Assembly: GCF_036507355.1 (NCBI RefSeq)
Contig: NZ_AP027885.1
DNA: 2,046 nucleotides
Reading direction: 5' to 3' (one strand)
Source of the DNA: Escherichia coli
GTDB lineage: Bacteria > Pseudomonadota > Gammaproteobacteria > Enterobacterales > Enterobacteriaceae
The notes under the pieces are model-generated. The model was not told the DNA's origin. It did no database searches and saw only the letters and a list, made by a program, of their open reading frames with translations. Numbering within the stretch: position 1 is the first letter of the stretch; the number at the start of each line of letters is the position of its first letter. Made by a program: the position numbers and the translations under genes. Positions 1 through 2,046 of the stretch are shown here, piece after piece.

Positions 1-1
1 C

Positions 2-403
2 CGTGGCACCCGTAGCCAGGTATCGATCTCACCGGAGGCGCTGGAGCCGCGTGTACTGCGGAAGGGTATTTTCACCAAAGACGTGGAAGATCAGGCAGCC
101 GTAGCCAAACGTTTAAGCCAGGCAGTGAACGATGGCTTTGCAGGAACCGTCGCTATGGCCTCTCAGAGCGCCCAGAATGCAAAAAGAGCGCGCGAGCTAC
201 AGAAGACTATGGATTCGCAGCAGAAACGCCTACAGAGCGTTACAGAGCCTTTTAAGGGGCTTTCCAGAGAGCAGATGACAGAAATCCTGATGATGGCTCA
301 GCGGTTTAAGCAGCAAAACCAGGAGAAGGAGAAACAGCAGCGTGTCGAACGTGAGACACAGCGACAGATGCGATCCCGTGGCATGGGCGGTATGGAGCGT
401 TAG
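2..403 (+). CDS. 3' portion of a CDS whose start lies outside the window; charged coiled-coil-like C-terminal tail; identity unresolved (possibly a relaxase C-terminal domain or another plasmid protein)
   Basis: Frame 2 is open from nt 2 to TAG at 401-403, with no in-frame stop upstream of the track's GTG at 83, so the gene begins beyond the 5' edge. The translation (...AKRARELQKTMDSQQKRLQ...QRFKQQNQEKEKQQRVERETQRQMRSRGMGGMER) is low-complexity and Q/E/K/R-rich. No catalytic motif recognised. Confidence 0.55.
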   Translation, partial: RGTRSQVSISPEALEPRVLRKGIFTKDVEDQAAVAKRLSQAVNDGFAGTVAMASQSAQNAKRARELQKTMDSQQKRLQSVTEPFKGLSREQMTEILMMAQRFKQQNQEKEKQQRVERETQRQMRSRGMGGMER

Positions 404-430
404 TTTTGATGCGATGCAGATAGGGTTAAC

Positions 431-455
431 GCCGCAAAACGAGGTCATTTGCGGC
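431..455. terminator. Hairpin between convergent genes (stem GCCGCAAA / TTTGCGGC, 9-nt loop); possible weak bidirectional terminator or RNA-stabilising stem-loop
   Basis: Seen in sequence: 431-438 gccgcaaa and 448-455 tttgcggc are exact reverse complements. It lies between the stop at 401-403 (+) and the stop at 466-468 (-). There is no clear U-tract on either strand, hence low confidence. Confidence 0.3.
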
Positions 456-465
456 ATTCCAGAGA

Positions 466-900
466 TTAGGTTCTGCCGCCCTGTATAACGCTGAGGCCGT
501 TTTTTAGTGCTTTCTTGTGGTTGCTGACAGTACCTTTCCAGCCAAACTGAGGGTTCAGACGGTAACTGTAACTGCGCCCTACTTTTGGGCCTTGAAGAAT
601 CACGGATAGGTCAATTAGCGCCTTAACCGAACGGCTTACATTGGTTTTCTGCATACCTAAAGCGTCGGCAATATCGGCTTGGGCAATTTGGATGTAATTT
701 TCATAATCGAGATCAGCTAACAGCATCATCAAGACTTTGAATTGCTCCCCTGTGAGGGTCTTAGCAAGGATCTTTAAAGCGTCTTGGTTCATAGTGAAAT
801 GCCTCTCAAAAGCTGACTTCTGTTTGGGTCGGATAACTGCGACAAAACTACCTACCTCTTCCCCTGTAGCAGTGTCTATCTGAGTAATTCGGTTACTCAT
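466..900 (-). CDS. 144-aa predicted winged-helix/HTH DNA-binding protein; candidate small plasmid replication initiator (RepL-like) or autoregulatory repressor
   Basis: ATG is the reverse complement of 898-900 and the TAA stop is the reverse complement of 466-468. An RBS GGGAGAG lies 8 nt upstream (rc of 907-913). The protein has an HTH-like segment (GEQFKVLMMLLADLD...IQIAQADIADALGMQKTNVSRSVKALIDLSVI). The gene has lower GC than its flanks. Palindromic repeats sit in its promoter region. The Rep-versus-regulator call is inference. Confidence 0.75.
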   Translation of the reverse strand: MSNRITQIDTATGEEVGSFVAVIRPKQKSAFERHFTMNQDALKILAKTLTGEQFKVLMMLLADLDYENYIQIAQADIADALGMQKTNVSRSVKALIDLSVILQGPKVGRSYSYRLNPQFGWKGTVSNHKKALKNGLSVIQGGRT

Positions 901-972
901 TTAAGAGGCTCTCCCAAAAAAATAGTTATCAATAATGATAACAACGTTATCAATAATGATAACTATCGTCAA
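901..972 (-). promoter_or_regulatory. Promoter/RBS region of the - strand gene, overlapped by operator-like repeats
   Basis: On the - strand: RBS GGGAGAG (rc of 907-913); -35-like hexamers TTGATA (rc of 927-932 and 948-953) and TTGACG (rc of 967-972); only weak -10 candidates (e.g. GATAAC, rc of 925-930). Exact promoter elements are uncertain. Confidence 0.4.
925..963. repeat. Two tandem 18-bp direct repeats (GTTATCAATAATGATAAC), each internally palindromic, 21-bp register; candidate operator or iteron array
   Basis: Seen in sequence: 925-942 and 946-963 are identical. Each is GTTATCA-ATAA-TGATAAC, and the 3-bp spacer AAC creates a further 7-3-7 inverted repeat between units, giving four alternating heptamers in total. 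Confidence 0.9.
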
Positions 973-1106
973 GCGAGAGCCGCGCCCCACAAGGGCTGAG
1001 AGAAGGCTCTCTTCTGTATCTTATAGCGAGAAGCTCATATGCCCGGATAGCGAACCCTATTTTCATCGGTTCGTGCGTAAGCATTTCTATGCCCGTTCAG
1101 GTGATA

Positions 1107-1196
1107 TTCCGCTTCCTCGTTCAGGCTGTTCGTTCCTCGCTGCGCTGCGGTACGCCTCAGCCTGACCTGCGGCGAGCGGCGCGTGCTCTTTCAAAG
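1107..1196. other. Segment resembling the primosome-assembly / single-strand initiation (pas, n'-site) region found downstream of ori in ColE1/pMB1-type plasmids
   Basis: Hand comparison with the pUC/pBR322 sequence recalled from memory. Colinear exact blocks: ttccgcttcctcg (1107-1119), ctcgctgcgct (1136-1146), ctgcggcgagcgg (1167-1179), and a 9/11 match ctctttcaaag (1186-1196), with insertions between blocks. Needs confirmation by alignment. Confidence 0.35.
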
Positions 1197-1216
1197 ACGA
1201 CTTTGTTGCCTGACAT

Positions 1217-1258
1217 TCGTCAAGGGCGAGCGTAGCGAGTGCCATTTACCCTTGACGA
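1217..1258. repeat. Inverted repeat with 10-bp perfect arms (TCGTCAAGGG / CCCTTGACGA) and a 22-nt loop, in the leader upstream of the relaxase gene
   Basis: Seen in sequence: 1217-1226 tcgtcaaggg and 1249-1258 cccttgacga are exact reverse complements. The right arm contains a TTGACG -35-like hexamer (1252-1257). Confidence 0.6.
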
Positions 1259-1382
1259 TTCACCGGATAAAACAGGCTTGGCAGTGGTGGGGGGTGGCGC
1301 GGAGCGACGCCTTCCACCTGCCAGACTGCCGTTGATTTTGACCTTCTGGCAGCTTGCTGCCCGAACGATTTTGCGTAGCAAA

Positions 1383-1413
1383 GTCTAGTGAGTACACTAT
1401 CATCCTGATAGTG
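1383..1413 (+). promoter_or_regulatory. Candidate oriT core / relaxase operator: nested inverted repeats sharing arms, about 70-95 nt upstream of the relaxase start
   Basis: Seen in sequence: TAGTG (1386-1390) - AGTA - CACTA (1395-1399), overlapping the 8-3-8 palindrome CACTATCA (1395-1402) - TCC - TGATAGTG (1406-1413). Alternative hairpins with shared arms are typical of MobV-type oriTs. A possible weak promoter overlaps: -35 TTGCGT (1371-1376), -10 TACACT (1393-1398). The functional assignment is inference. Confidence 0.35.
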
Positions 1414-1468
1414 GCCCGCCGGAGGCATCGCAATGCGATCCCCCGACTGGCTGGATGTACGCCAGAAC

Positions 1469-1475
1469 GAGGGGG
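1469..1475 (+). promoter_or_regulatory. Ribosome-binding site for the relaxase gene
   Basis: GAGGGGG lies 5 nt upstream of the ATG at 1481. Confidence 0.6.
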
Positions 1476-1480
1476 TAAGC

Positions 1481-2046
1481 ATGGCGAATTACGCGATAAT
1501 GCGCTGCAAAAAGCTGACGGGAATGGGCAGTGTGGCCAGCGCTTTGCAGCACTGCTACAGGGAGCGTGAGACGCCGAATGCTGACGCTGAACGGACACCA
1601 GAAAACTACTGCTCTGTGTCTCAGTCGGCAGATGAGGCGATGGGAAAGCTGCGGGAGCTGTTGCCGGAAAAACGCCGTAAAGATGCGGTACTGGCTGTTG
1701 AATACGTTATGACGGCAAGCCCTGAGTGGTGGAACGAGGCCACACCGCGGCAGCAGGCGGAGTTTTTCGCCCGTTCTGAGCAATGGCTGGAGAACAAATA
1801 CGGGAAAGATCGCGTTGTGGCGGCGGTGGTTCACAGGGACGAGGCCACCCCGCACCTGTCTGCGTTCGTGGTGCCATTGACGCAGGATGGGCGGCTGTCC
1901 GCGAAAGAGTTTATTGGCGGGCGGTCAAAGATGCGTGACGATCAGAGCACCTACGCTGAATCGGTAAAAAAACTGGGTCTTGAGCGCGGCATCGAGGGAA
2001 GCCGTGCCACGCATCAGACAGTTCAGCACTACTACGAATCGATAAA
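1481..2046 (+). CDS. mob: MobV-family (Mob/Pre, pMV158 MobM-like) plasmid mobilization relaxase, N-terminal relaxase domain; 3'-truncated by the window edge
   Basis: ATG at 1481 is preceded by the RBS. The frame is open through nt 2046 (188 codons, hand-translated, no stop), which is why it is absent from the ORF track. The translation (MANYAIMRCKKLTGMGSVASALQHCYRER...RKDAVLAVEYVMTASPEWW...AAVVHRDEATPHLSAFVVPL...LERGIEGSRATHQTVQHYY) matches, from memory, the conserved MobV blocks: the N-terminal M-x-Y-x-V-x-R-x-Q-K region, an HNER-like motif, the RKDAVL block and the HxDE..PH metal-binding motif. Confidence 0.9.
   Translation, partial: MANYAIMRCKKLTGMGSVASALQHCYRERETPNADAERTPENYCSVSQSADEAMGKLRELLPEKRRKDAVLAVEYVMTASPEWWNEATPRQQAEFFARSEQWLENKYGKDRVVAAVVHRDEATPHLSAFVVPLTQDGRLSAKEFIGGRSKMRDDQSTYAESVKKLGLERGIEGSRATHQTVQHYYESI

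Follow-up and report, generated by a model that had tools for sequence, protein, structure and literature searches.

Two open reading frames are cut off by the ends of the stretch of DNA analysed here (2,046 bp; hereafter, the window). One is open from base 1 to a TAG at 401–403; the other starts at ATG 1481 and is still open at the last base, 2046. They share frame 2 of the + strand. This arrangement raises the question of whether the two frames are the halves of a single gene on a small circular molecule. The earlier note, made from the sequence of the window, had proposed that the first is the C-terminus of a relaxase that starts at 1481, on a circle a few hundred bp larger than the window. 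When joined, 1481..2046 and 1..403 form 969 nt, corresponding to 322 codons and a stop. The frame is continuous across the junction, as the note had anticipated, with no internal stop. Codon 189 (AAC, Asn) is split between 2045–2046 and base 1. The 3′ part of the gene therefore begins at base 1, and not at base 2 as the note had it.

On at least 18 other contigs, an uninterrupted called gene encodes exactly this joined protein of 322 residues. Similarly, mobV of pLAO26 is 969 nt, and the gene crosses the record start in the RefSeq annotation of pCP8-3-2k (2046 bp) and of the E. coli CT02 plasmid unnamed2. The two partial frames could instead be different genes that share strand and frame by chance: a shared frame has a one-in-three chance, and the isolated tail matches no Pfam or NCBIfam family. 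However, single tblastn alignments cover residues 1–322, and distant MobV relatives on other replicons (322–329 aa, down to 39% identity) align across the junction and, as the note had suggested checking, through the tail. Together with the exact joined protein called as a single gene elsewhere, these alignments refute the reading as two separate genes, the likelihood of which is negligible. The data support the original proposal that the two end fragments form one gene, for a MobV relaxase, on a small circular plasmid.

No terminal overlap was found at the window's own ends; circularity was therefore demonstrated through comparison with other assemblies. In three independent records, the last 150 bases of the window run without a gap into its first 150, with identities of 97.3%, 99.7% and 100%, respectively. 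The same junction is also contiguous within the Proteus IncX3 plasmid pPM1-NDM5. Four short-read contigs (L017, L021, L022 and L024) have terminal k-mer overlaps of 30, 141, 111 and 55 nt, respectively, and each leaves a 2046-bp unit. A further contig, L018, also has 2046 bp and matches the window with 1 mismatch after rotation by 1489 bases. The overlapping ends, evidence of the type that the note had called for, and the rotation support a circle of 2046 bp. Head-to-tail 2046-bp units are also present on a metagenome scaffold. Overall, independent assemblies join the two ends and agree on the unit length. The circle measures exactly 2046 bp, rather than being a few hundred bp larger, and nothing is missing.

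The tandem units on metagenome scaffolds are also what would be expected if the window were one unit of a longer molecule, for instance a multimer, a cointegrate or a larger plasmid that has the same module. In addition, the segment from the primosome-site-like region through mobV (1077..2046 + 1..460) is integrated in a 48-kb Proteus IncX3 plasmid, and several copies occur in larger records, such as CP077068.1 (8913 bp, 3 places). Against this, the source sequence is exactly 2046 bp, the unit length of the four contigs with k-mer overlaps and of the rotated, near-identical contig; circular records of 2043–2046 bp are common; and mobV would be continuous even on a multimer. An origin from a larger molecule is thus very improbable. 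The window is almost certainly a complete, small, mobilizable cryptic plasmid of the Enterobacteriaceae, 2046 bp in length and opened inside its relaxase gene. Its circularity, its unit length and the continuity of mobV are established in the present analysis, as are the family assignments and the conservation of the cis elements described below. The plasmid type is already catalogued and belongs to a known family, with no new biology.

Three records represent the same plasmid type and carry the same two genes: pCP8-3-2k (NZ_CP053743.1, 2046 bp; 96.9% nucleotide identity), CT02 plasmid unnamed2 (NZ_CP081700.1, 2028 bp; 100%) and contig JBRJSI010000005.1 (2046 bp; 99.95%). Their linearisation points differ from that of the window. 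CT02 unnamed2 lacks 18 bp (window 1831–1848), exactly at the ends of its record. The features of the plasmid are summarized in Table 1. The inventory given in the note, of rep/regulator, ssi, oriT and mob, is broadly right, except that the 'regulator' is most likely a replication initiator.

Table 1. Features of the 2046-bp plasmid, in window coordinates.
Feature	Position	Strand	Description
mobV, 5′ part	1481..2046	+	Codons 1–188 and first two bases of codon 189; N-terminal relaxase (Mob_Pre) domain
mobV, 3′ part	1..403	+	Last base of codon 189, codons 190–322, TAG stop 401–403; helical C-terminal region
Shine-Dalgarno-like GAGGGGG	1469..1475	+	5 nt before ATG 1481; read from sequence
oriT core (putative)	1367..1414	+	Two inverted repeats with 8-bp arms and 3-nt loops: 1367–1385 (one mismatch) and 1396–1414 (perfect)
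Nick-region motif	1380..1393	+	AAAGTCTAGTGAG/T; pMV158 equivalent AAAGTATAGTGTG/T
Predicted nick	G1392/T1393	+	By homology to pMV158 only (14-nt similarity)
rep	466..900	-	144-aa RepL-like winged-helix protein, probable replication initiator
75-bp palindrome	907..981		Two identical 18-bp palindromic repeats, GTTATCAATAATGATAAC, at 925–942 and 946–963
Sigma-70 promoter-like site	935..962	-	TTATCA-16-TATCAT, extended TG; faces rep, inside the repeats; consensus scan only
Segment resembling a ColE1-type primosome assembly site (pas/ssi)	1107..1195		Conserved islands
Conserved hairpin	1217..1258		10-bp stem (TCGTCAAGGG/CCCTTGACGA), 22-nt loop; inverted repeat I24
Hairpin between convergent mobV and rep	428..458		Inverted repeat I22; no T-run after

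In the sister plasmids, RefSeq places the start of mobV 48 nt further upstream than ATG 1481. This alternative start, ATG 1433, shares the reading frame, has a GGAGG ahead of it (1421–1425), is the RefSeq start in pCP8-3-2k (1017 nt) and yields a 338-aa form, given in several RefSeq records, that occurs in 153 index blocks. However, the extension is out of frame, closed or absent in five of the seven plasmids compared, and it would put codons over sequence adjoining oriT. Moreover, the Pfam model and MobM of pMV158 both align from residue 1 of the product that starts at 1481. ATG 1481 is the only mobV start conserved in all seven relatives examined, each of which has a G-rich stretch before the aligned ATG. 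From these comparisons, ATG 1433 is judged less likely than ATG 1481, and we consider it an unlikely start. A consensus scan of the window found no promoter for mobV.

The relaxase encoded from ATG 1481 belongs to the MobV family according to NCBIfam NF041497 (160.9 bits; cut-off 100). Pfam Mob_Pre (PF01076) spans residues 1–185 (E 4.6e-45), and the N-terminal domain matches the relaxase domain of pMV158 MobM (PDB 4lvi; E 2.6e-14). MobM, the MOBV1 prototype, uses His22 of motif I as its catalytic histidine. The window protein shares with MobM the N-terminal domain, a helical C-terminal region, the HxxR containing the catalytic His and, from motif III, HxDExxPH. More specifically, motif I is H24-C-Y-R27, which aligns to HNER of MobM and in which H24 and R27 are invariant in relatives. 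Motif II, NYEL in the family, is partly kept as ENYC; N42 is invariant while the Tyr is not kept in other proteobacterial relatives. Motif III (HxDExxPHuH), associated with metal coordination, reads HRDEATPHLS, with H118, D120, E121, P124 and H125 present.

The last His of motif III is Ser in the window, unlike in MobM. At this position, each of the eight proteobacterial relatives has S, T or V; only MobM and pTA1015 have His. The loss is a clade-wide variant, and such proteins still pass the family HMM. Because this last His of the MobM metal site is absent, the geometry of the active site may differ from that of MobM. The window protein, whose hosts are Gram-negative, is also shorter than MobM, at 322 versus 494 aa.

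The tail of the relaxase (residues 190–322) contains 31.6% K/R/D/E and 18 Gln. In an AlphaFold2 model, generated from only 7 sequences and having a tail pLDDT of 60–83, long helices occupy residues 220–273 and 278–316. The tail had been described as a charged coiled coil; a charged helical character holds for residues 220–316, but residues 190–219 are not helical in the model. Residues E218, A224, R226, A242, R265, L266, R310, R313 and R322 are invariant in relatives. The solved MobM structures are limited to the N-terminal domain, and the tail has no detectable sequence similarity to them.

The oriTs of MOBV plasmids are typically 8-bp inverted repeats with a 3-bp spacer (PMC3632715), and the oriT sequence and nick position of pMV158 have been described (PMC3105389). 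In both pMV158 and the window, oriT lies just upstream of the gene, a hairpin is followed 8 nt later by a GpT, and AAAGTnTAGTGnG/T is common to the two. By this homology, the nick would fall between G1392 and T1393. The block 1366–1425, with AAGTCTA invariant, is kept ahead of mobV across plasmids whose replicons differ. Both hairpins were present in the single-stranded DNA fold. The pattern AAAGTNTAGTGNGT had one match in the window and none in 200 shuffles, even when one mismatch was allowed. At the sequence level, therefore, a hairpin followed by GpT precedes the gene. The literature points to a possible MOBV2 membership: Mob of pBBR1, the prototype of that clade, is a proteobacterial MobV whose oriT likewise has 8-bp inverted repeats and a 3-bp spacer.

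The second gene, rep, encodes a helix-turn-helix protein that RefSeq names 'MarR family transcriptional regulator' or 'HTH domain-containing protein'. In Pfam, Rep matches RepL (PF05732; E 7.5e-5, 22.7 bits) over residues 6–132, nearly the whole protein, and MarR_2 slightly better (E 3.2e-5). In PHROGs, it matches 'replication initiation O-like' (E 3.2e-6). A PDB sequence search returned weak, generic HTH matches only (E ≥ 0.03), and a full-text literature search found no mention of its accession, WP_004193480. RefSeq uses the name RepL for homologues at 65–70% identity. Rep also shares 80.7% identity with a 'replication protein', the product of the single gene annotated on circular Col(MG828) plasmids of 1506 bp, a genomic argument that a protein of this type can sustain a replicon as its sole encoded protein. 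Overall, these comparisons suggest that the 144-aa protein is most likely a replication initiator. RepL initiators of pSN2-type Firmicute plasmids are, like Rep, small, single winged-helix initiators, but the match to their profile is weak and very distant at this E-value.

The RefSeq name and the marginally better MarR_2 match would suit a MarR-like protein that is a transcriptional regulator only, with replication proceeding otherwise, such as from an RNA-primed, ColE1-like origin; the window does contain a ColE1-like pas segment. Such an arrangement is improbable, given that circular plasmids of 1506 bp have no annotated gene other than that for the 80.7% identical protein, that homologues are named RepL and that the PHROGs matches are replication initiators. 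Furthermore, a search of Rfam at E ≤ 1 found no RNAI or related family, the only hit being a chance microRNA match (mir-451, E 0.92) on the palindrome. When the window was compared with the pUC ori region, the pas-like segment was the only alignment below E 0.05; outside it there was no significant similarity to ColE1/pUC origins. A ColE1-type (RNAI/RNAII) origin was rejected because Rfam gave no RNAI match at this permissive threshold.

The 75-bp palindrome, likely a Rep binding site that acts as operator and/or origin, folds as single-stranded DNA with −17.4 kcal/mol (z = −7.8), and none of 200 shuffles folded as well. Its 18-bp repeats are conserved beside rep in a Col(MG828) plasmid and in the Pectobacterium plasmid Drgb4. 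The number of sigma-70-like sites in the window, of which the candidate rep promoter is one, is not above chance expectation.

In the pas-like segment, islands TTCCGCTTCCTCG, CTGCGGCGAGCGG and GCTCTTTCAAAGACG are conserved with respect to pLAO26 despite diverged sequence between them, and occur in the same order in the pUC/pBR322 ori flank. The fold energy of the segment does not surpass that of shuffles (+ strand, z = 0.24; − strand, z = −1.23), so structure lends the pas assignment no support. The hairpin at 1217–1258, possibly part of the origin, has a fold z of ∼−2. In Pectobacterium Drgb4 it is ∼90% identical, as against only 70% for the rep gene, and it occurs in 166 plasmid records; among the 40 listed, all but one are <7 kb. 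Between the convergent genes, the hairpin at 428–458 folds with −10 kcal/mol (z = −2.3), and a Col(MG828) plasmid has a counterpart of the segment 405–459, at 84% identity, downstream of its rep gene. A consensus scan found no canonical intrinsic terminator between mobV and rep.

The Col(MG828)/pKST21-family mini-plasmids (∼1.5 kb) thus have in common with the window a related Rep as well as the 18-bp repeats and a hairpin downstream of rep. By contrast, they lack the mob module, and no pas or 1217–1258 hairpin was detected in them. The rep DNA of the window is 72–75% identical to that of a Col(MG828)-typed plasmid, and the closest relatives of the window have no replicon type in PLSDB. By sequence, the replicon is related to Col(MG828) but is not of the same type. 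The pKST21/Col(MG828) family is said to need two rep genes (PMC8148099), whereas only one conserved ORF was found in the replicon region of the window. A 76-aa ORF at 935–1165 was considered as a second rep gene by analogy to pKST21 and was rejected, as only 922–972 is conserved in a Col(MG828) plasmid. We also rejected NZ_CP040074.1 (1445 bp, identical Rep) as a minimal replicon, since this record is linear and covers the same plasmid only in part. The architecture of the window has a precedent in a reported 3348-bp E. coli plasmid with MOBV2 and RepL-like genes (PMC8148099). Plasmids of 3346–3347 bp carry a MobV that is 97.6% identical to that of the window.

From these parts we infer roles for the tail, the repeats, the pas and the hairpin, as well as a mode of replication. 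The RepL-like winged-helix protein would bind the two 18-bp repeats, which overlap its own putative promoter, and a PriA-type primosome assembly site at about 1107–1195 would prime the complementary strand. By homology with pMV158 MobM, the relaxase would bind the oriT hairpin (1367–1414) just upstream of its own gene and cut the + strand at the predicted nick, with His24 as the nucleophile and the metal held by His118, Glu121 and His125. It would then stay on the cut strand, and the two would be exported through the secretion system that a co-resident conjugative plasmid supplies. The tail may serve in dimerisation and/or in contacting the coupling protein of the helper.

A more far-reaching interpretation, which we regard as tentative and rather doubtful, combines a proteobacterial MobV clade having a two-histidine metal site with a replicon half whose mechanism has not yet been worked out in the Enterobacteriaceae. 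The two-histidine site is proposed since members of this clade invariably carry Ser, Thr or Val in place of the third His of motif III. The replicon half comprises the 144-aa RepL-like protein, the 75-bp palindrome, the strongly conserved 1217–1258 hairpin and the putative PriA-type priming site.

The main value of the finding is practical, in that the window is recognised as a complete, catalogued MobV/RepL plasmid. Arbitrary linearisation of tiny circular plasmids splits genes. The split genes fill databases with 'plasmid recombination enzyme, partial' entries and inconsistent start calls, and some relatives seem to have no relaxase gene in gene tables that leave out genes crossing the record start. 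With a match in 104 of 5426 complete E. coli genomes (about 1–2%), the plasmid family is moderately common, and an NDM-5 IncX3 plasmid of Proteus (48 kb) has captured the pas-oriT-mobV module. This frequency and this capture make the family relevant to studies of plasmid mobility.

To investigate whether the coding sequences at the two ends of the window are parts of a single relaxase gene, as the earlier note had proposed, we examined their reading frames. An ORF already open at the window start closes at a TAG at 401-403 on the plus strand. A second plus-strand ORF, in the same frame, begins at ATG 1481 and is still open at the window end. Joining 1481..2046 to 1..403 yields 969 nt, corresponding to 322 codons and a stop, with codon 189 (AAC) straddling the window ends. 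The frame is therefore continuous across the junction and, the exact protein being called elsewhere, the two coding sequences represent one gene, mobV. Its 3' part begins at base 1 and not, as previously given, at base 2. ATG 1481 is the sole start common to all seven relatives compared, among which an extension to ATG 1433 is not conserved. The mobV of plasmid pLAO26 is likewise 969 nt. Start calls in RefSeq are inconsistent, with mobV lengths of 906, 969, 999 or 1017 nt depending on the record; the 1017-nt form starts at ATG 1433, window 1433-1480 being the extension.

Four independent lines of evidence demonstrate that mobV is one gene on a circle. First, the junction (last 150 plus first 150 bases) was ungapped in three plasmid records opened elsewhere, at 97.3%, 99.7% and 100% identity, and is also unbroken within the Proteus IncX3 plasmid pPM1-NDM5. 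Second, at least 18 contigs (NCBI, ENA and Logan) carry a called, uninterrupted gene for the joined 322-aa protein, identical at every residue, and 153 index blocks list the 338-aa form that begins at the upstream ATG 1433. Third, rotating the window by 1489 bases reproduces contig JBRJSI010000005.1 (2046 bp) at all but one position. A check for overlapping ends in related contigs revealed terminal direct overlaps of 30, 141, 111 and 55 nt in L017, L021, L022 and L024, respectively, each leaving a 2046-bp unit; such overlaps are the signature of assembled circles. In one metagenome scaffold, 2046-bp units lie head-to-tail. Fourth, in the RefSeq entries of pCP8-3-2k (2046 bp) and E. coli CT02 plasmid unnamed2, the annotated mobV runs through the record start. 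The window length, 2046 bases, is the full length of the source. Together, these data establish that the circle is exactly the window, with no sequence missing. The proposed small circular replicon is thus borne out, but not the suggested excess of a few hundred bp over the window.

The CT02 plasmid (NZ_CP081700.1, 2028 bp) is identical to the window except for one mismatch and the absence, precisely at its linearisation point, of 18 bp (window 1831-1848). The missing bases specify the motif III core of the relaxase (HRDEAT), yet RefSeq annotates the gene as intact. Because other family members keep the 18 bp, their loss probably reflects over-trimming at circularisation.

Residues 1-185 of MobV match Pfam Mob_Pre (E 4.6e-45), and the protein scored 160.9 bits against the NCBIfam MobV equivalog (cut-off, 100). 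The solved relaxase domain of MobM, the prototype MOBV1 relaxase of pMV158, was matched at E 2.6e-14. His24 and Arg27 line up with the conserved residues of MobM motif I (HxxR), and motif III is HRDEATPHLS (residues 118-127; window 1832-1861). In the defined motif, HxDExxPHuH (PMC3105389), the final histidine contributes to the metal site of MobM. This residue is present only in the Firmicute proteins MobM and pTA1015; each of the eight aligned proteobacterial MobV relatives has Ser, Thr or Val instead. The alignment suggests a two-histidine metal site across the whole proteobacterial MobV clade.

The MobV tail (residues 190-322) matched no family of its own. When compared with C-terminal regions of MobV relaxases, as had been proposed, it aligned in relatives of 322-329 aa, with nine invariant residues; these relatives sit on unrelated replicons in Klebsiella, Vibrio and Komagataeibacter. 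An AlphaFold2 model based on a seven-sequence alignment (mean pLDDT 74.8) had a confident N-terminal domain and long helices at 220-273 and 278-316 in the tail. In MobM, dimerisation and transfer require the C-terminal part (PMC3105389), and by analogy the tail may serve the same role here. Among the hits of a tail-only search were many fragments named 'plasmid recombination enzyme, partial', and several of these overlap the Mob_Pre domain. Dozens of clusters so named in public collections (among proteins P0001-P0048) are C-terminal pieces of this relaxase, as ~2-kb circular contigs are linearised arbitrarily.

Features of the 2046-bp circle
Feature	Position	Strand	Description
Hairpin	428-458		between convergent genes mobV and rep; no T-run
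Rep, 144 aa	466-900	minus	weak RepL and MarR_2 matches
75-bp palindrome	907-981		directly upstream of rep; z = -7.8
pas-like segment	~1107-1195		between 18-bp repeats and oriT; conserved islands
Hairpin	1217-1258		10-bp stem, 22-nt loop
oriT hairpin 1	1367-1385		8-bp arms, 3-nt loop
oriT hairpin 2	1396-1414		8-bp arms, 3-nt loop

Upstream of mobV, a single block (window 1366-1425) is strongly conserved across plasmids with different replicons. The layout of its two hairpins is reported to be typical of MOBV oriTs (PMC3632715). After hairpin 1, the window's AAAGTCTAGTGAG/T matches AAAGTATAGTGTG/T of pMV158, in which the slash marks the mapped GpT nick (PMC3105389; PMC5863519). A pattern derived from the nick motif matched the window once and none of 200 shuffles. 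Based on this resemblance and uniqueness, the nick is predicted to lie between G1392 and T1393 of the plus strand.

Rep also weakly matches phage O-like initiators. Circular Col(MG828) plasmids of 1506 bp have a single annotated gene, whose product is 80.7% identical to Rep, and homologues at 65-70% identity carry the name RepL. Rep is therefore most likely an initiator, beyond a mere regulator. Although a relative of Col(MG828), the replicon is not typed as such. Neither RNAI nor any other Rfam family was found in the window. The palindrome upstream of rep holds two identical 18-bp palindromic repeats, which overlap a promoter-like site facing rep and are kept beside rep in distant relatives. 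The conserved islands of the pas-like segment have counterparts in the primosome assembly site that flanks the origin of pUC/pBR322. The 1217-1258 hairpin retains ~90% identity in Pectobacterium plasmid Drgb4, despite a rep identity of only 70% there; it occurs in 166 plasmid records and, among the 40 listed, all but one are plasmids <7 kb. A Col(MG828) plasmid lacking a mob gene carries, downstream of its rep, sequence 84% identical to segment 405-459, which was therefore assigned to the rep module.

The window has matches in 204 PLSDB records, and in 60 of these the match covers 80% or more of it. Of 5426 complete E. coli genomes, 104 contain a match, without exception on plasmids. A small E. 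coli plasmid with MOBV2 and a RepL-like protein is already in the literature (PMC8148099). The plasmid type is thus catalogued, and the finding is correct but ordinary and already known.

Related units also occur in other arrangements. In L014, a 4795-bp ENA metagenome scaffold, a window-identical unit is joined to a diverged one (74% identity over the rep half), which encodes a Rep of 143 aa and carries an additional ORF of 201 aa; either a heterodimer or the chimeric assembly of a pair of co-resident relatives could account for this scaffold. In pPM1-NDM5 (NZ_OQ230782.1), a conjugative IncX3 NDM-5 plasmid of Proteus mirabilis, positions 2593-4027 are an inserted pas-hairpin-oriT-mobV segment without rep, corresponding to window 1077..2046 plus 1..460 at 91-93% identity and adjoining the plasmid's own MobP1 relaxase. 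Finally, the identity of pLAO26 to the window is 98% over 1168..2046, which spans the pas end, oriT and the 5' portion of mobV, and falls to ~84% over 1-972, which holds the 3' portion of mobV, rep and the repeats; 973-1167 can hardly be aligned save for the pas islands. As judged from these alignments, the mosaic structure points to recombination between modules.
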